Of a stretch of DNA of 64,000 nucleotides, positions 51,713-61,936 are shown piece after piece. The notes under the pieces are model-generated. The model was given only the letters and a program-made list of their open reading frames with translations. It did not search any database and had not been told where the DNA came from. The DNA is from a virus. Its lineage: Duplodnaviria; Caudoviricetes. Both the position numbers and the translations under genes were made by a program. Position 1 is the stretch's first letter; the number at the start of each line of letters is the position of its first letter. The stretch lies in the IMG/VR virus record IMGVR_UViG_3300028364_000013, one strand, 5' to 3'.

Positions 51713-51791
51713 GACTATAAATAGCCATAAAAAATATGATTTTTAACCTATAAACAACAAAAAAGGCGAGAATTTCTTCCCACCTTATTAT

Positions 51792-53219
51792 TTAGTATTT
51801 CCTTTTTGAAGGGTCGTCATCAGCCATCCTAACCACTTGTGGTGTGAATGTACCAAGAATATCAATCAAGTTGTTTTGCGCTTCCATTACTTTCGTAATA
51901 TCTTTATAAGCATATGGAGCCTCATCGAGACCGCCACCAACAAGTGTTACCTTGTTATCTTTAAGAAGCTTAGTAACTGAGCTTTGAGTAAACGAGTTTC
52001 TCGCCACCTTTCTTGACATAGCTCTACCAGCACCGTGAGAAGCTGAAGATATTGAGTCAACAACACCTCTTCCTCTAACAATGAACCCTGGAGAAACCAT
52101 AGAACCTGGGATTATACCAAGGACACCTTTTCCAGCAGGAGTTGCTCCCTTACGGTGAACAATAACCTCTTTACCATCAATGATTTCCTTCCAAGCAAAG
52201 TTGTGGTGATTTTCAATCTTAGCCACTGGGTTTAACTTTAGCTCTTTGGTAATTCTTCTGTGAATCTCGTTGTGACAAGCTTGCGCATAATCACCAGCCA
52301 TATTCATAGCTATCCAGTATTCCACACCAGCTTCCGAATTCATATCAAGCCACGCAAGGTGTTGAGCTGCCTTTGGAAGAGGTGTTGTGTTCATAGCAAT
52401 TTCATGATACTTGTTGGCAAGTGTAGCACCGAACCCTCTTGAACCAGAGTGAGTTAATACACCAACATATTCTCCAACCTCAAGACCGAAGTCGTTAGTT
52501 GGGTCAGTTATCTTAACTATACCAAAGTCCACAAAGTGATTTCCACCTCCTGAAGTTCCAAGTTGTTTCCAAGCTTTGTCCTTAAGAGCTTTTATGTTTG
52601 GTATTTCATTGAACTCTTTCCTATCAAGGAATTCGTGTTCAGTTAATTTACCATCATTCTCAACTCCCATTCCGAAGAATGACTCAGACTTAAGAATGTT
52701 TTCAATCTTATCTCTATTTCCATCAATGTATGAACCACCTTTATCGTAGATGGTCATGTGCATTCTACAACCTATGTCAACACCAACTGCATATGGAATA
52801 ATAGCATTATCTGTAGCAAGGACACCTCCAATTGGAAGTCCATAACCTTGGTGAGCATCTGGCATAAGAGCTGCAGCAACAGAGATTGGCAATCTTGCAG
52901 CAAGTTTTATTTGCTCGTGAGCGCCTTCTTCTATGTTGTCTCCACCATATACAGTATATGGCACACCAACTTCTTTAAGTGGGATTTCAATCACTTCCTC
53001 TTCTACAGCTGGAATCAATAATTCAGCGATTGGCCCAAGAACAATGTCTTCAACATAATCTTCTGGAGTCAAAAGTACAGCCTTTAAAATATCACGTACA
53101 GTATCAAGGTCACTGTGCTTGTAAGCTTTTGTTACAATCTTCAATGTTACACCCATAACTTTACCTGGCTCCATTCCGAACGCCATAAGGTCTTTGCCTG
53201 TTATCTTTAACTTTACCAT
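51792..53219 (-). CDS. rtcB: RtcB RNA ligase
   Basis: MPDAHQGYG, GVDIGC, GTSGGGNHF, HSGSRG, HHN, VHRKGA, SHGAGR, DEAPYAYK. Confidence 0.95.
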   Translation of the reverse strand: MVKLKITGKDLMAFGMEPGKVMGVTLKIVTKAYKHSDLDTVRDILKAVLLTPEDYVEDIVLGPIAELLIPAVEEEVIEIPLKEVGVPYTVYGGDNIEEGAHEQIKLAARLPISVAAALMPDAHQGYGLPIGGVLATDNAIIPYAVGVDIGCRMHMTIYDKGGSYIDGNRDKIENILKSESFFGMGVENDGKLTEHEFLDRKEFNEIPNIKALKDKAWKQLGTSGGGNHFVDFGIVKITDPTNDFGLEVGEYVGVLTHSGSRGFGATLANKYHEIAMNTTPLPKAAQHLAWLDMNSEAGVEYWIAMNMAGDYAQACHNEIHRRITKELKLNPVAKIENHHNFAWKEIIDGKEVIVHRKGATPAGKGVLGIIPGSMVSPGFIVRGRGVVDSISSASHGAGRAMSRKVARNSFTQSSVTKLLKDNKVTLVGGGLDEAPYAYKDITKVMEAQNNLIDILGTFTPQVVRMADDDPSKRKY

Positions 53220-54233: not shown

Positions 54234-55262
54234 TTATTTAATCAAAAATTCTTGAAGAGCTTTACTTCCGAACTCTCCTTTGGTTAAATTAATTATTTCT
54301 TTAACTGAATATTTTTCTTTCTTATTTATTTTCTCTCTCTCAACAAAGCCTTTAACACCAAAACCGCAGGCTCCAGTTATAGCTCGATAACAAGAAATTG
54401 CTTGCTCAAAACTTAACTCATCTGTTAGTTTTAAGCCTTTAAAATCATCTTTATTTACATCAGAATTTAACTTGTAAATTAAATCCTCTCTGGCTTCAGA
54501 AAGAGAGTCTCCATGAGCATATTTGCCACCCCCATTTGTAACCAAATAAAAAACCTTCTCTTCACATAACTTCTTAACTCTGAAAACACCGCCTCTCACA
54601 GAAATAATCTCTGTAAATATACCATCTGCCTTTATATATTTATCGCCCCACATAACTGGCCCAACCAATTTCGTGAAATCACAAGTCAAACCTCCCAAGT
54701 GCAAACTTCCTCCAACGGTTGGGTTAAATCCCTCTGGAATCGAAGTCAAACTGTTCAAGTCCAAAGTTCCTCCAACGGTTGGGTTAAATCCCTGTGGAAT
54801 CGAGGTCAAACCGCTCAAGTCCAAATATCCTCCAACGGTTGGGTTAAATCCCTCTGGAATCGAAGTCAACCTGTTCAAGTACAAACCTTCTCCAACAGTT
54901 GGGTTAAATCCCTCTGGAATCGAAGTCAACCTGTTCAAGTACAAACCTTCTCCAACAGTTGGGTTAAATCCCTCTGGAATCGAAGTCAACCTGTTCAAGT
55001 ACAAATATCCTCCAACGGTTGGGTTAAATCCCTCTGGAATCGAGGTCAACCTGTTCAAGTACAAACTTCCTCCAACGGTTGGGTTAAATCCCTCTGGAAT
55101 CGAAGTCAAGCTGTCCAAGTACAAACTTCCTCCAACGGTTGGGTTAAATCCCTCTGGAATCGAAGTCAAGCTGTCCAAGTCCAAAGTTCCATTTATTTTA
55201 ACTTCACCAGTAAACTGCTCTTCAGTTAAATTGTATTCCTTGCAAAATTCTTTTTTATTCAT
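54234..55262 (-). CDS. 20-aa LRR-like repeat protein, copy 2
   Basis: 342 aa, 8 repeats, termini nearly identical to copy 1. Confidence 0.85.
   Translation of the reverse strand: MNKKEFCKEYNLTEEQFTGEVKINGTLDLDSLTSIPEGFNPTVGGSLYLDSLTSIPEGFNPTVGGSLYLNRLTSIPEGFNPTVGGYLYLNRLTSIPEGFNPTVGEGLYLNRLTSIPEGFNPTVGEGLYLNRLTSIPEGFNPTVGGYLDLSGLTSIPQGFNPTVGGTLDLNSLTSIPEGFNPTVGGSLHLGGLTCDFTKLVGPVMWGDKYIKADGIFTEIISVRGGVFRVKKLCEEKVFYLVTNGGGKYAHGDSLSEAREDLIYKLNSDVNKDDFKGLKLTDELSFEQAISCYRAITGACGFGVKGFVEREKINKKEKYSVKEIINLTKGEFGSKALQEFLIK
54690..55190. repeat. 60-bp coding tandem repeat x8
   Basis: GGGTTAAATCCCT recurs every 60 nt. Confidence 0.95.
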
Positions 55263-55661: not shown

Positions 55662-56468
55662 TCAGATTGTATAATTTTCATCCCACTCCCTAATTTTCTC
55701 TTTCAATTCTTCTAACGTTATTGAACTATCGTAGTTCTTGACATTATTATCACTATGTTTCATCAACCCGCAGTTTGCTGGGTGAGCTATTATCTCTGGA
55801 GCAACCTTATTAATAAAACCATCTCTTACACTATACGAATGGTCTCTACTGACCCCGTTAATATTATTTCCTTTATTTGATGGGCTGTACCAACCATGTT
55901 GTTCAATCAATGTGAAATTAAATTCTTCTTTAAAATCTCTAACATCAAACTTAAACTCACACGCAGGCCGATAAGCCTCGTAATATTCCATCCTACAATC
56001 GTCACAAATCAACTTATGCTTCTTGGATACTTTAAATTCATCACAATATCTACACTTCTTTTTTCCATTCACTTTTTTGGTTCTTTTTTCTATACTAATT
56101 CCACCTTTCCATCTTGAATTATTTTCTCCACTATTCTTTTTTATTGTTTCATCACTTACTACATGCCCAAAAAGACTTTCTCCTATCTTTTTTTTAGTTT
56201 CATTACTATGAGTACTTCCAAAATTATTAAATGAAGCAGAACAAGAACTTGAACAGAATTTTCTTTTTGATTTAATTAAATCAAAAAAACTTACACCGCA
56301 GTTATTACAACTATATTCTTTATGATTAATGATATTCAACCCTAATCTATAACACCTATTTCTAACACTACTTTTAGTGACCCCTATAACTTGAGCAATA
56401 TCTTCATGTTTTTTACCAATAAGAATTAATTTCCTTAACTCTTCATCCAAATTTTTACTCCATCTCAT
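55662..56468 (-). CDS. putative homing endonuclease (HTH, Zn finger, NUMOD3-like, HNH-like)
   Basis: FCSSSC, HSNETKKKI, NSRWKGG, SRDHSYS...HPANC. Confidence 0.7.
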   Translation of the reverse strand: MRWSKNLDEELRKLILIGKKHEDIAQVIGVTKSSVRNRCYRLGLNIINHKEYSCNNCGVSFFDLIKSKRKFCSSSCSASFNNFGSTHSNETKKKIGESLFGHVVSDETIKKNSGENNSRWKGGISIEKRTKKVNGKKKCRYCDEFKVSKKHKLICDDCRMEYYEAYRPACEFKFDVRDFKEEFNFTLIEQHGWYSPSNKGNNINGVSRDHSYSVRDGFINKVAPEIIAHPANCGLMKHSDNNVKNYDSSITLEELKEKIREWDENYTI

Positions 56469-56523
56469 ATTAATAAATATGATAAAAAAAGCAAAAACAA
56501 GATTTCGAGCCAGTATGATTTTG

Positions 56524-56595
56524 AGACAGCGAAGGGATTCAAACCCTTATAACCACACTTTGCAGGTGCGTACCTTATCAATCGGCCACGCTGTC
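56524..56595 (-). tRNA. tRNA-Cys(GCA)
   Basis: CGCAC-CTGCAAA-GTGTG, U73; D loop TGAT and T loop TTTGAAT. Confidence 0.85.
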
Positions 56596-56608
56596 TTATA
56601 TTTTATTG

Positions 56609-56693
56609 AGGTCAGGGAGGGATTCAAACCCCCGATGGGCTTGCGCCTACAGATTTGCAGTCTGTCGTCTTCAATCACTCGAACCACCCGACC
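56609..56693 (-). tRNA. tRNA-Cys(GCA) with long variable arm
   Basis: ACAGA-CTGCAAA-TCTGT, variable arm GGC-GCAA-GCC, U73. Confidence 0.82.
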
Positions 56694-56712
56694 TTATAAA
56701 GGGGAAAGTCAA

Positions 56713-57384
56713 TTAAGACCTTCCACCTTTACAGATTATATCAGCTGCACAAGTTGCAGCCCAAGAGTTAGGCTTAAACCTTACTCTGTATCCTAATCCC
56801 TCAAGATGCGCTTTTGCAGCAGCATAAACAATGTGGGACCTGTTCTTTGGAATACCTGGAGACTTACCTGCTCTGATAAGTTCTTTTTGCCAAGAAGTCC
56901 AACCAGCATCTGGGTTAATGTCAATATCAATATCAACTAACTTGGTTTGGTTTGACTTGTAACCTTTAGCAACAGCTTCTTCTGGTGTCATCCTCTTGTA
57001 CTTCCCTTCAAGCTCTCTCTCAAAGTATTCTCCAAGTTCGAAAAGCCTTTCGGTTTCATGCCAGATTCTTTGGAAAATAGATGAAGTCAAATTCTTTCTG
57101 TGAAGCTCTTTGTCTTTAACTTTGTTTCCAGTCTTGCTGAATTTAACTTGGTTACCAGAAATAAGCTCTCTATTGAAAATGTAGTGTACACCGTCATTTC
57201 TGTCGTTATCGTAAAACGCTACAACATCTGCATACATAATTTTTCTACCATTTCTTCTTACATCAGAGTCGCATCCAATGTAAACAGTTTCTCCTGGAAA
57301 TTTCTCAATGTGTCCTCTAACGTACTCACCAAGGTCAGCAATTATTTCACCTCCAAATTTCTTAAATACTCTTTCTTCCATCAT
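56713..57384 (-). CDS. RNase H-like protein (DUF458-like)
   Basis: VYIGCDS, IWHET, IDIDIN, KPNSWAATCAAD. Confidence 0.75.
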   Translation of the reverse strand: MMEERVFKKFGGEIIADLGEYVRGHIEKFPGETVYIGCDSDVRRNGRKIMYADVVAFYDNDRNDGVHYIFNRELISGNQVKFSKTGNKVKDKELHRKNLTSSIFQRIWHETERLFELGEYFERELEGKYKRMTPEEAVAKGYKSNQTKLVDIDIDINPDAGWTSWQKELIRAGKSPGIPKNRSHIVYAAAKAHLEGLGYRVRFKPNSWAATCAADIICKGGRS

Positions 57385-57475
57385 TTCTTCTTTTTTTAGT
57401 AGTCCTAAAAAGTTGTCAGTTTTTTCCAGTCTAATTCATCATTATTACTTGTTTTTTGTTTTTAAATTTGCGCAT

Positions 57476-57512
57476 AAAAAAAAGCCCAAACTATTCGAGA
57501 TAGCTTGAGCTT
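57476..57512 (-). terminator. attenuator terminator of the Cys leader
   Basis: AAGCTCAAGCTAT-CTCGA-ATAGTTTGGGCTT, 8-U tract. Confidence 0.85.
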
Positions 57513-57536
57513 AAAATTTCTTTTATTATTATAAAT

Positions 57537-57647
57537 CTACTTCATAACACTCAAACTAACGTTTTTTTTGCAAAACGGACATACCCCTTCCAGGCCGCAA
57601 TCAATCGCTTGCGAAGTTGGTCTCCAATATGTCATGTTAGTTTTCAT
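57537..57647 (-). CDS. Cys-containing leader peptide MKTNMTYWRPTSQAIDCGLEGVCPFCKKNVSLSVMK
   Basis: 36 codons, 3 Cys; terminator 24 nt downstream, then an RNase H-like gene and two tRNA-Cys. Confidence 0.7.
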   Translation of the reverse strand: MKTNMTYWRPTSQAIDCGLEGVCPFCKKNVSLSVMK

Positions 57648-57669
57648 CTGTTTATAAATATATTATTTT

Positions 57670-57945
57670 TTATCCAAGCAGCAATCCGCTCTTTTTTTCT
57701 TGTTTTTTTGCATCTTTCCATTTCCATCCGAGGAAGAATCTGGTACACGCTCTATGAAACCAATTTGGCTTCTTTGTATAGTTGAAGACGATTGAACCTT
57801 CTACTTGGTTGCTTCCTGTTATATCATATCCTCCAACAACTGGTGGTGGAGTGTATATTTTAACATCTGCAACATCAATTGCTTCATCAATTTCTGGCTT
57901 TTTTCTTTCACCAGAATATTCTTGTTCTTCCCAATATATATTCAT
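57670..57945 (-). CDS. hypothetical protein
   Basis: KKPNWFHR...FFLGWKW. Confidence 0.6.
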   Translation of the reverse strand: MNIYWEEQEYSGERKKPEIDEAIDVADVKIYTPPPVVGGYDITGSNQVEGSIVFNYTKKPNWFHRACTRFFLGWKWKDAKKQEKKSGLLLG

Positions 57946-58022
57946 ATTGTAAATATATAAAAATAATATTTAATATCAAATTAATAACCTTTTATTTACG
58001 CAGGGACTTATATTATTAATTG

Positions 58023-58225: not shown

Positions 58226-58323
58226 TGGACAATACGAGAATCGAACTCGTATCTCCAGTTTGCGCTATCCTGTGTGGTTGCACTTCATAGCCTTCACCGA
58301 TTTACCAATTAATCTAATTGCCC
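58226..58323 (-). ncRNA. tRNA-Ala-like RNA with an extended anticodon region
   Basis: G3:U70, A73, normal D and T arms, 47 nt instead of about 22 between them. Confidence 0.75.
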
Positions 58324-58328
58324 TTTTG

Positions 58329-58398
58329 TTGGTGTAGAGGGACTCAAACCCCCGACCCCCTGAATTACAGGTGCTCTAATCAACTGAGCTATACACCG
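58329..58398 (-). ncRNA. tRNA-like RNA with a shortened anticodon arm
   Basis: CCTG-TAATT-CAGG (4 bp, 5-nt loop), C1:A72, TGAT/TTTGAG elbow. Confidence 0.7.
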
Positions 58399-58780: not shown

Positions 58781-59551
58781 TTAATTCTTTACTTCATCTA
58801 AAATATTATATTTTAAACACCATTTTCTAACTGTATTATCAGAAACTGCATACTTATTTCCAACCCTTGTAAAATATTTAAATTTTTTAAAATCATCCAA
58901 TAGAACCATTTTGTTTGGTATTCTGCTTTTTCTTTTACAATTATATTCTTTGCACCACTTTTTAATTACACCCAATGAAACCCCTAAGTGTTTAGATAAT
59001 TCTAAATCACTTTTAAATTTCGAAAATACCAACACAAATTCTTCTTTATTTATTTTTGGTAAAATATTTATTTCACTAATTACCTTTCCAAGTTTTTCAT
59101 ATTCTCTTTTTATTTTATGACATCTTTTATAATTACCACCTTTAGGGGTTAATCCAGTTTGTATTAATGACTTTCTCATATTCCAGTCATTAATCAACAA
59201 ATATTCTAATAATTTTTCATTACTAATTTTTTCTTTTTTTATTTTATTTCTACCCCTCCAATTACTTGTTAAACCATGGCAGTTTGGACATAGACACTCA
59301 AGGTTTGTTTTTTTATTATTTGTATTATCCCCATCAATGTGATTAATTTCCAAAGGTATATTACACCCTTGCCATTTATTTAATTTACATTTTTTACAAG
59401 TTCTTTTATTTTCATATATAATATATTCTCTAATCATATCCCAAGATAAATCATCAAAATTTTTACTTAAAATATATTCTTCACGTTTTTTTCTTTCTTC
59501 TAAATTATATAACTCCTTTTTTTCACTAATTCTTAACCACTGACTTGACAT
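58781..59551 (-). CDS. HNH homing endonuclease
   Basis: LEINHIDGDNTNNKKTNLECLCPNCH; C-terminal HTHs. Confidence 0.88.
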   Translation of the reverse strand: MSSQWLRISEKKELYNLEERKKREEYILSKNFDDLSWDMIREYIIYENKRTCKKCKLNKWQGCNIPLEINHIDGDNTNNKKTNLECLCPNCHGLTSNWRGRNKIKKEKISNEKLLEYLLINDWNMRKSLIQTGLTPKGGNYKRCHKIKREYEKLGKVISEINILPKINKEEFVLVFSKFKSDLELSKHLGVSLGVIKKWCKEYNCKRKSRIPNKMVLLDDFKKFKYFTRVGNKYAVSDNTVRKWCLKYNILDEVKN

Positions 59552-60069: not shown

Positions 60070-60750
60070 TTACCAAGATTTTCCTTCTTTATAATTTTTT
60101 CTTCTTCTCTTTCTTCTTCTACTATACCTACCATCCCCTTCTGATATAGCTTTCCAACTTTTAGTTAATGCATGATGATTTGGGCATAAAATCTGCAAAT
60201 TATCTACTTTATTATTATCTGGATTACAATCTACATGATGCAACTCCAGCGGTATTTTACCTGAATATTTATTTACCTCTTTCCATCCGCACTCCATGCA
60301 TTTTTCTCCATGTATAGATATAAGATAAGTCTTATAAATTTTGGTATGCTCAGTAGTATATTCTCCTTTTTCTATTTTATCAAAAATCTCTTTTCTTTGA
60401 AATTCTTGTTGACACTTATTATTACAATATTTCTTATTTCCATCTATCTGCTCTTTACAGTTTGTACAATTATTAAACTTTTTTCTTTTTCTATTGTTAT
60501 AACTCACCCCACATGATTTGCAACAAAACTTTTTTGGATTAGACTTATTAACTTCAAACCCACATTTACACTCTAAACAACTCCTATCCTCACTACTTGA
60601 ATTATGTTCTGAAAATTTAACTCCAGATTTATTCATTTTATTCCTAACAGAATCAACACTCCTATTTAATTCTTCAGCTATATGATGAAATCTAAACCCA
60701 TCTATAACAAGCTTTTTAGCTTTTTCAAACTCTTCTTTGCTCCATTTCAT
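60070..60750 (-). CDS. HNH homing endonuclease
   Basis: LELHHVDCNPDNNKVDNLQILCPNHH. Confidence 0.88.
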   Translation of the reverse strand: MKWSKEEFEKAKKLVIDGFRFHHIAEELNRSVDSVRNKMNKSGVKFSEHNSSSEDRSCLECKCGFEVNKSNPKKFCCKSCGVSYNNRKRKKFNNCTNCKEQIDGNKKYCNNKCQQEFQRKEIFDKIEKGEYTTEHTKIYKTYLISIHGEKCMECGWKEVNKYSGKIPLELHHVDCNPDNNKVDNLQILCPNHHALTKSWKAISEGDGRYSRRRKRRRKNYKEGKSW

Positions 60751-60930: not shown

Positions 60931-61016
60931 GGTGAAAGATGGGTTCTGACCCCACGACCTCCCGATTCACAGTCGGGCGCTCTACGACTTTCGTCTCCAG
61001 CTGAGCTACAATCACC
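60931..61016 (-). tRNA. tRNA-His(GUG) with an extra hairpin in the D loop
   Basis: G-1:C73, CCCGA-CTGTGAA-TCGGG, GAC-GAAA-GTC insertion, T loop GTCAGAA. Confidence 0.75.
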
Positions 61017-61825: not shown

Positions 61826-61936
61826 TTAAATTAGTTCATCACTTCCATTTTTGCTTATACATAGCTCGACCATACCATTTTGCTTTTTATTGCAAATCGT
61901 ATTATTAATCGTTGTATGTATATTTAATGAGTACAT
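61826..61936 (-). CDS. leader peptide MYSLNIHTTINNTICNKKQNGMVELCISKNGSDELI
   Basis: 14 of codons 5-20 are N/I/H/T/K; between promoter 61985 and the terminator. Confidence 0.85.
   Translation of the reverse strand: MYSLNIHTTINNTICNKKQNGMVELCISKNGSDELI

Follow-up and report, generated by a model that had tools for sequence, protein, structure and literature searches.

A putative leader-peptide attenuator with conserved cysteine codons ahead of an RNase H-like gene and tRNA-Cys genes in a large phage

Leader-peptide attenuation is a textbook mechanism for the control of amino-acid biosynthesis genes. We describe a locus of comparable design in a phage, in which a leader open reading frame (ORF) of 36 codons and an intrinsic terminator stand ahead of a gene for a DUF458 protein and two tRNA-Cys genes. 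The locus lies in a 64,000-nucleotide stretch of DNA, hereafter the window, from IMG/VR virus record IMGVR_UViG_3300028364_000013 (Duplodnaviria; Caudoviricetes). Judged from its sequence, it has the anatomy of a trp-type attenuator, and we consider it fairly probable that the leader senses the decoding of Cys codons and gates transcription of the DUF458 and tRNA-Cys genes, possibly as far as a gene for the RNA ligase RtcB.

The one other Cys-codon sensor that we found described in the literature is a set of mycobacterial polycysteine ORFs. According to the accessible part of the preprint on them (Canestrari et al. 2020, bioRxiv 10.1101/834739), these leaderless small ORFs (sORFs), situated at the extreme 5' end of an mRNA, use their Cys codons to sense Cys on behalf of a downstream operon, via ribosome stalling. 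Their Cys codons form consecutive runs and they act on translation, by unmasking a downstream ribosome-binding site (10.1101/834739). Our searches of the full-text literature returned no published account of leader-peptide control of tRNA genes, or of leader-peptide control in phages.

The window is AT-rich (~34% GC) and comes from a large uncultured lake phage whose assembly is a 195-kb contig. Its minus strand carries nearly all genes and the 22–23 tRNA genes. We gathered relatives of the locus through a homologous-protein search together with the encoding contigs and through alignment-based scans, which gave about 60 metagenome relatives of the DUF458 protein (36–91% identity) and 56 retrieved loci. 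A leader hidden Markov model (HMM), applied to the upstream DNA of the close relatives (67–91% identity), yielded 22 distinct leader sequences and recovered the same unit in every close relative having upstream DNA. Together with nine leaders from a distant set (42–52% DUF458 identity, or ~79% to that distant subgroup), 31 related metagenomic leaders were considered. A blastn search with positions 56400–58000 gave no match in the phage collection, and a single-protein scan of IMG/VR found no relative.

The leader reading frame and its alternative pairings

The leader ORF follows closely upon a 9-nt promoter-like motif, ATATTTATA, which ends 5 nt upstream of the AUG and is conserved in 22 of the 22 close relatives. 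Words of the same class occur 12–29 nt (motif start to ATG) before dozens of coding-strand genes of the contig and also ahead of the three other leader units of the window; on the whole contig, all six leader units have it. The leader would have its own transcription start, with a 5' untranslated region (UTR) that is very short or absent.

The pattern of change among the close relatives is good evidence of coding constraint and that the leader frame is read as protein. The frame is open in all 22, with ATG as the start codon in 20 and GTG in two, and the other two frames hold 1–6 stops. Nine indel classes fall inside the ORF and all are multiples of three, the single exception lying beyond that sequence's own stop, while the spacer and the terminator loop have indels of 1–7 nt. 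Mean column entropy at codon positions 1, 2 and 3 is 0.41, 0.56 and 0.66, respectively. It is the open frame, the ATG or GTG start and the in-frame-only indels that argue for a frame that is read.

These features bear directly on a reading without any translation, in which the leader would be a T-box-like sensor of tRNA-Cys made of RNA only, with a Cys codon as specifier and the sequence UGGA (57626..57623) pairing with the UCCA 3' end of tRNA-Cys. UGGA is present in 18 of the 22 close relatives, both tRNA-Cys genes have a U73 discriminator (CCA is not encoded), and the leader folds well (z-score −2.8). The in-frame-only indels, the start codons and the constrained stop argue for translation instead; in addition, UGGA is placed 5' of the codons and is not part of the antiterminator, which differs from a T-box, and an element of ~170 nt is much smaller than a T-box. 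The Rfam matches at gathering score in the window are limited to tRNAs, with none to the T-box (RF00230), and a search of 57380..57700 at E ≤ 10 gave chance-level matches, including Trp_leader (14.4 bits against a cutoff of 41) and again no T-box. We regard a sensor of this kind as extremely improbable. A Trp codon, mostly as UGGA, is also conserved near the start (codons 8–11) of the otherwise unrelated leaders L034, L040, L044 and L046; the gated unit has no tRNA-Trp.

The terminator behind the leader ORF is strong, with a 13-bp stem (57512..57482) and, after it, a U8 tract that ends at 57476. Its helix, formed by segments 3 and 4 (Table 1), is paired in 98.6% of cells in the 22 relatives and has compensatory changes at the two top pairs. 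An earlier note on this DNA had reported a 9-bp pairing of UAGUUUGAG (57558..57550), near the end of the ORF, with CUCAAGCUA (57509..57501). The pairing is there, with one G-U; it extends to 10 bp (57558..57549 with 57510..57501), and UAGUUUGAG thereby pairs with the 5' arm of the terminator. When the 135 nt upstream were shuffled 3000 times, ~0.6% of the shuffled sequences contained a 10-bp complement to that arm. On their own, the observations of the earlier note taken together are moderately unlikely by chance.

Comparison of the close relatives reveals that this pairing is a conserved antiterminator (helix 2:3) of 10 contiguous pairs. Of its cells, 93% are paired, a share that falls to 10–40% when the partner is slid. 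A further segment, at codons 2–4, had escaped notice before. It pairs with codons 30–32 (57560..57553) in an 8-bp helix 1:2, with 94% of cells paired and compensatory changes at two pairs (AU to UA in six sequences, CG to UA in two). Both RNAalifold and direct pair counts find helices 1:2, 2:3 and 3:4 conserved and mutually exclusive. The computed stability of the untranslated ORF fold closed by helix 1:2 is −25.6 kcal/mol, and that of the antiterminator is −14.1 kcal/mol versus −15.1 kcal/mol for the terminator. A spacer hairpin around the stop codon stacks inside the antiterminator fold and is paired in 84% of cells across the relatives; the alignment as given holds no covariation in it. In nine representative close relatives that were measured, the stop codon lies 3–15 nt past segment 2 (9 nt in the window) and the last conserved Cys codon 14–17 nt before it.

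Cysteine codons in close and distant leaders

The earlier note had placed Cys at codons 17, 23 and 26 of 36 and had counted 19 of the 20 amino acids in the peptide, all but His. Both statements hold on re-reading the ORF, where the three codons are UGC (57599..57597), UGU (57581..57579) and UGC (57572..57570). Their conservation in homologous leaders, which that note had named as a check, divides them. Cys17 is kept as Cys in 22 of 22 close relatives (TGC in 15, TGT in seven) and Cys23 is kept, as TGT, in all 22. Cys26, in contrast, is missing from 20 of the 21 other close relatives and is specific to the window, with a nearby Cys at codon 28 in L011. Given that Cys accounts for 1.18% of the phage's codons, finding at least three Cys codons among 36 has p ~0.009; at least two among 35 gives p ~0.064 and is not significant alone; the weight of the argument therefore comes from conservation. 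We propose Cys17 as a sensing codon and Cys23 as the main one.

Each of the two conserved codons forms part of the 3' strand of a conserved helix, Cys17 of P3 (CGCAA:UUGCG) and Cys23 of P2 (ACAUAUU:GGUAUGU), and neither helix shows covariation in the alignment of close relatives. P2 also accounts for the conserved residues T-Y-W. The conservation of Cys in the close relatives could therefore be partly structural, and within these relatives alone the case for Cys sensing is ambiguous. We did not adopt a purely structural explanation, since Cys17 is retained in L011 and L030, where a changed 5' strand prevents P3, and since Cys codons persist in unrelated leaders.

Those unrelated leaders are the nine of the distant set. 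They were missed by the leader HMM, and their peptides and flanking nucleotides are unrelated to those of the close set. Each has a terminator and, at the end of its ORF, a segment complementary to the terminator arm, and all nine hold 2–3 Cys codons (~6% against a background of 1.18%). What they share with the close set is the Cys codons and a segment-2-encoded S-L-G/S end. The invariance of two Cys codons in the close relatives and the 2–3 Cys codons of the nine distant leaders support the proposal, already made in the earlier note, of a Cys leader attenuator.

Behind their terminators, the distant units hold tRNA-Leu(UAA), then DUF458, then tRNA-Cys. The distant leaders also contain 3–7 Leu UUR codons (~15% versus 3.9%), often interleaved with Cys, as in L-C-L-C-A-P-L-C-L (L040) and G-L-C-G-L-L-C (L046). 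Per leader, the close set, with no tRNA-Leu in the unit, averages 2.1 Cys and 1.5 Leu UUR codons, and the distant set, with tRNA-Leu(UAA) in the unit, 2.1 Cys and 5.0 Leu UUR codons (eight leaders counted; L046 was added later); in the proteome, Cys makes up 1.18% and Leu UUR 3.9% of codons. The nominal p of the Leu UUR contrast is 1.5e-5, which overstates the evidence since the sequences are related. Such a pattern is what codon-matched sensing would predict, and not what a general speed sensor would predict.

A further correspondence concerns the number of Cys codons. A third Cys codon occurs in the leaders of four loci, and these include all three loci that have three tRNA-Cys genes downstream (Fisher p 0.0035); this link is post hoc, involves at most two independent events and may be taken as a hint. 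L054 has tRNA-Leu and DUF458 without tRNA-Cys but cannot serve as a control, because it has no leader ORF. In L036 and L043, where DUF458 also lacks tRNA-Cys, there is no Cys leader; both are very distant and carry little weight.

We propose the following scheme. Transcription would start at the phage promoter motif 5 nt before the AUG, and the 36-codon leader would be translated while RNA polymerase moves ahead. With no ribosome on the leader, segment 1 would pair with segment 2, the terminator 3:4 would form and transcription would stop at U8, so that the default state is off. A ribosome that proceeds unhindered to the UAG would cover segment 2, and the terminator would again form. A ribosome waiting at Cys17 or Cys23 for charged tRNA-Cys would leave segment 2 free, with segment 1 assumed to be covered during the stall by trailing or initiating ribosomes. 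Segment 2 could then pair with segment 3 as soon as this is made, no terminator would form, and the polymerase would enter DUF458, the two tRNA-Cys genes and perhaps RtcB. The new tRNA-Cys would relieve the stall and close a negative feedback loop.

Several observations weigh against this scheme. Given the long distance between segment 1 and the Cys codons downstream of it, masking of segment 1 needs the second ribosome that we assume, and helix 2:3 has no double-sided changes in the 22 relatives, its core being invariant. The two conserved Cys codons are 5–6 codons apart, with no tandem run of the kind found in trpL or hisL, and both sit inside P2 and P3; the Cys signal is weaker than in classical attenuators. 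Cys codons also occur in other leaders of the phage, two in the leader ahead of Asn/Ile/His/Thr/Lys tRNAs and one in that for Pro/Asp. Many residues of the peptide other than Cys are conserved (T-Y-W, S-Q, D, P-F) and rare NCG codons are enriched in the leaders (7.9% versus 1.3%), so other inputs are possible. A conserved mini-ORF and hairpin before DUF458 (see below) may add control outside the model. Finally, in distant relatives the promoter motif stands directly before DUF458, and tRNA-Cys there need not depend on the leader.

Part of this evidence would fit a ribosome-dependent attenuator of the same build that reads general elongation speed or the coupling of transcription and translation, its timing set by rare UCG, CCG and CUG codons and by the folded leader, with Cys incidental or structural. 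The spacing of the two Cys codons and their place in conserved helices, the six-fold enrichment of NCG codons, the 19 amino acids of the window peptide and the one or two Cys codons of other leaders all agree with it. Against it, the Cys codons are the sole feature, besides the antiterminator-encoded end, that is shared with the nine distant leaders; the Leu UUR content tracks tRNA-Leu(UAA) in the unit, which argues for codon-specific sensing; and Cys17 persists where P3 is broken, in L011 and L030. A general translation-rate sensor, which the earlier note had offered as its alternative, thus keeps a place and, given the Leu UUR data, fits less well than codon matching. We consider it unlikely.

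The conservation of residues other than Cys in the 22 close relatives (T-Y-W, S-Q, D-C, C-P-F, S-L-S) might also be that of a nascent-chain arrest peptide like TnaC or ErmCL, which would stall on a small molecule or on the state of a translation factor and so open the antiterminator. Most of these residues, however, are encoded by nucleotides of helices 1:2, P2, P3 and 2:3, and the distant leaders, before the same gene set, share only the Cys residues and the S-L-G/S end. An arrest peptide therefore seems highly improbable to us, and we retain Cys decoding as the proposed signal.

The genes behind the terminator and the other leader units

The features of the locus are collected in Table 1. 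The earlier note had identified the downstream genes correctly, as a DUF458-like gene of RNase H fold and two tRNAs with GCA anticodon. The DUF458 protein matches PF04308 (RNaseH_like, YkuK) at 31.8 bits, with a gathering cutoff of 25. Its AlphaFold2 model has a mean predicted local distance difference test (pLDDT) score of 91 and gave weak Foldseek matches to RNase HI and EndoV (template modelling (TM) score ≤ 0.28); a sequence search of the PDB found nothing. A tRNA-Cys gene stands behind DUF458 in each close relative for which downstream DNA is available, at 17–24 nt in most and 117 nt in L016, and likewise in all relatives down to 45% protein identity. DUF458 homologues without it are much more distant ones alone (25–42% identity). 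This association points to a functional tie between the RNase H-like protein and tRNA-Cys.

Table 1 Features of the locus in the window and positions of the distant leaders in their own loci.
Feature	Position	Strand	Basis or remark
Promoter-like motif ATATTTATA	57661..57653	-	Recurring 9-mer; presumed promoter
Leader ORF, 36 codons and UAG stop	57647..57537	-	Coding constraint in relatives
Segment 1, AAACUAAC, codons 2-4	57643..57636	-	RNAalifold consensus helix with segment 2
Segment 2, GUUAGUUUGAGU, codons 30-33	57560..57549	-	Pairs with segment 1 or segment 3
Spacer hairpin, UAG stop in loop	57548..57528	-	ViennaRNA folds
Segment 3, terminator 5' arm	57512..57500	-	
Segment 4, terminator 3' arm	57494..57482	-	
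U8 tract	57483..57476	-	
Conserved element before DUF458	57442..57393	-	In 19 of 22 close relatives
DUF458 (PF04308) gene, 223 aa	57384..56713	-	Pfam match
tRNA-Cys(GCA) gene, 86 nt	56693..56608	-	ARAGORN and Rfam
tRNA-Cys(GCA) gene, 73 nt	56595..56523	-	ARAGORN and Rfam
RtcB RNA ligase gene	53219..51792	-	Pfam RtcB, E 5e-77
Next intrinsic terminator, after RtcB	51786..51763	-	
Distant leader L033	282-383		
Distant leader L034	406-507		
Distant leader L038	715-816		
Distant leader L040	781-894		
Distant leader L041	1717-1818		
Distant leader L042	2142-2252		
Distant leader L044	2070-2186		
Distant leader L045	2745-2834		
Distant leader L046	1544-1651		

The first tRNA-Cys has a class-II-like variable arm with a 4-bp stem, which is unusual for tRNA-Cys, and keeps U73 and the GCA anticodon. 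Long tRNA-Cys genes of 83–88 nt, one per set, also occur in L011 (3675-3759), L013 (3676-3758), L025 and L040 (3001-3088), and the relatives show the same pairing of short and long forms for Lys, His, Ile, Gln and Thr tRNAs.

A conserved spacer of 80–95 nt separates the terminator from DUF458 in the window and in most relatives. Its mini-ORF (57442..57431) begins with ATG, continues for 1–3 further sense codons, of which one is often another ATG, and closes with TAG. An invariant box, TAGACU..UGACAAC, lies at 57433..57412, and the A-rich stretch that precedes the DUF458 AUG forms the 3' arm of a weak A/U hairpin (57411..57393). The distance from TAG to hairpin is fixed at 16–18 nt, and from lineage to lineage changes in one arm of the hairpin are compensated in the other. 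No consensus structure for this spacer came out of RNAalifold, and its hairpin appears in single-sequence folds only. Of the three close relatives without the element, L031 has another gene after the terminator, and L013 and L021 have DUF458 starting 14–18 nt after the U tract of the terminator. The element may be a second, translational layer of control. In L013 and L021 there is no room for a promoter of its own before DUF458, which would thus be transcribed by read-through only, and the claim of the earlier note that a protein gene is co-regulated holds.

The spacer also bears on a simpler reading, in which an ordinary small gene is followed by an ordinary terminator that ends the tRNA array upstream, without any switch, and a promoter of their own within the 90-nt spacer serves DUF458 and tRNA-Cys. 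A 13-gene tRNA array and a 91-aa ORF do precede the terminator, the spacer box contains a TTGACA-like word in most relatives, and the distant relatives have the promoter motif directly before DUF458. This reading leaves aside the promoter motif immediately before the small ORF, the complementarity of the ORF 3' end to the terminator arm in every relative, the covariation of segment 1 with that same 3' end and the constrained position of the stop codon. It is also at odds with L013 and L021, which lack the spacer, and with the other leader units of the contig. For when we scanned the 195-kb contig for a promoter motif followed by an ORF of 15–50 codons and a terminator, six units were found, and all six precede tRNA genes. 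We therefore judge it very unlikely that the locus is without a switch.

Under the attenuator reading, the gated transcription unit may extend to RtcB. No strict promoter motif was found between 57661 and 51724 and no strong terminator between 57482 and 51786, and RtcB begins 35 nt after tRNA-Cys in L003 and is next or nearby in most loci. RtcB ligase reseals cut tRNAs. A variant of the attenuator can be conceived in which the leader would serve as a damage sensor in counter-defence, with stalling at Cys codons reporting depletion or cleavage of the host's tRNA-Cys, caused for example by an anticodon nuclease of the host or by the phage's own shut-off. One transcript would then supply replacement tRNA-Cys (including the long-arm form), the tRNA-Cys-linked RNase H-like nuclease and RtcB. 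We keep this variant in view because neither a promoter motif nor a strong terminator intervenes up to the end of RtcB and because RtcB directly follows tRNA-Cys in L003, and rate it as distinctly unlikely. A tRNA-Cys-specific toxin is known in mycobacteria, according to the accessible part of a published report (PMC13096801).

Other genes of the region are of interest in their own right. HNH/homing-endonuclease-like genes (56468..55662, 59551..58781 and 60750..60070, minus strand) are situated among the tRNA genes and directly behind the tRNA-Cys pair; they look like mobile insertions, because relatives such as L040, L044 and L046 lack them or have them elsewhere. A 342-aa protein (55262..54234, minus strand), encoded inside the possible Cys-gated operon, is built from a 19-aa unit (..LTSIPEGFNPTVGG.LYL..) repeated about eight times in tandem and has no Pfam or PHROG match. 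Rfam also finds three tRNA-like genes that ARAGORN misses (58398..58329, 58323..58226 and 61015..60931, minus strand). In the first, the anticodon loop is odd, and its homologue in L003 is labelled 'tRNA-???' by ARAGORN and given an anticodon of two bases; the second measures 98 nt.

We compared the Cys unit to the other leader units of the contig. They share the promoter motif, an ORF length of 26–39 codons, an AU-rich spacer, the type of terminator and the same logic, with leader codons matched to the downstream tRNAs. The Cys unit differs in being the sole one with a protein gene between terminator and tRNAs, in having the lowest density of matched codons, in sensing a single, rare amino acid, as proposed here, and in the extra mini-ORF and hairpin before its first gene. 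The Asn/Ile/His/Thr/Lys leader (61936..61832, minus strand) lies upstream, and read-through from it would enter the Cys unit. Both of its Cys codons are kept in the sole available homologue (L045, 78-179), and the L005 array itself includes tRNA-Cys.

Comparison with known attenuators

Like trpL, hisL, pheL and leuL, the phage unit has a short ORF at the start of the transcript, with codons for the amino acid that would be sensed, and four segments that can form helices 1:2, 2:3 and 3:4, with an intrinsic terminator before the regulated genes. The stop codon likewise lies just past segment 2, and the sensing codons ~15 nt before it. In the usual attenuator the regulated genes make the sensed amino acid, whereas those of the Cys unit are tRNA genes, an RNase H-like gene and perhaps RtcB, and not biosynthetic enzymes. 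Such an output, more tRNA, would help when the tRNA and not the amino acid is limiting. The phage leader has two conserved, non-adjacent sensing codons, where trpL and hisL have tandem runs; its segment 1 is placed at codons 2–4 and not around the sensing codons; and it has no Shine-Dalgarno sequence and probably a very short 5' UTR or none.

Compared with the mycobacterial polycysteine sORFs, as far as the accessible text on these goes, the phage leader has two or three spaced Cys codons in place of consecutive runs, a switch at an intrinsic terminator in place of an unmasked ribosome-binding site, and tRNA-Cys among the genes it would gate. T-box riboswitches resemble the phage unit in tying genes of the translation supply to one tRNA species through the choice between terminator and antiterminator. 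A T-box, however, binds uncharged tRNA directly, without a ribosome, whereas the phage ORF is under coding constraint.

If the proposal is right, a giant phage regulates its own supply of tRNAs for individual codons, with the host ribosome as the sensor. The Cys unit would be a sensor for a rare amino acid built from two codons, with a protein gene, and perhaps an RNA-repair ligase too, under the same gate as the tRNAs. With this 170-nt element, the reasons for which phages carry tRNAs become open to direct test.

The closest parallel for the distant leaders is found in the multivalent leaders thrL (Thr and Ile) and ilvL/ivbL (Ile, Leu and Val). The distant phage leaders likewise mix codons, Leu UUR and Cys, which match the two tRNAs of their unit, and the leader of the window has lost the Leu part together with the tRNA-Leu gene. 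The result is a natural experiment, in which Leu codons are gained exactly where tRNA-Leu joins the unit and Cys is kept, and it would rank among the clearest comparative arguments for a functional codon match. Unlike thrL, ilvL and ivbL, the distant phage leaders match tRNA genes at the level of the codon, UUR with the anticodon UAA.

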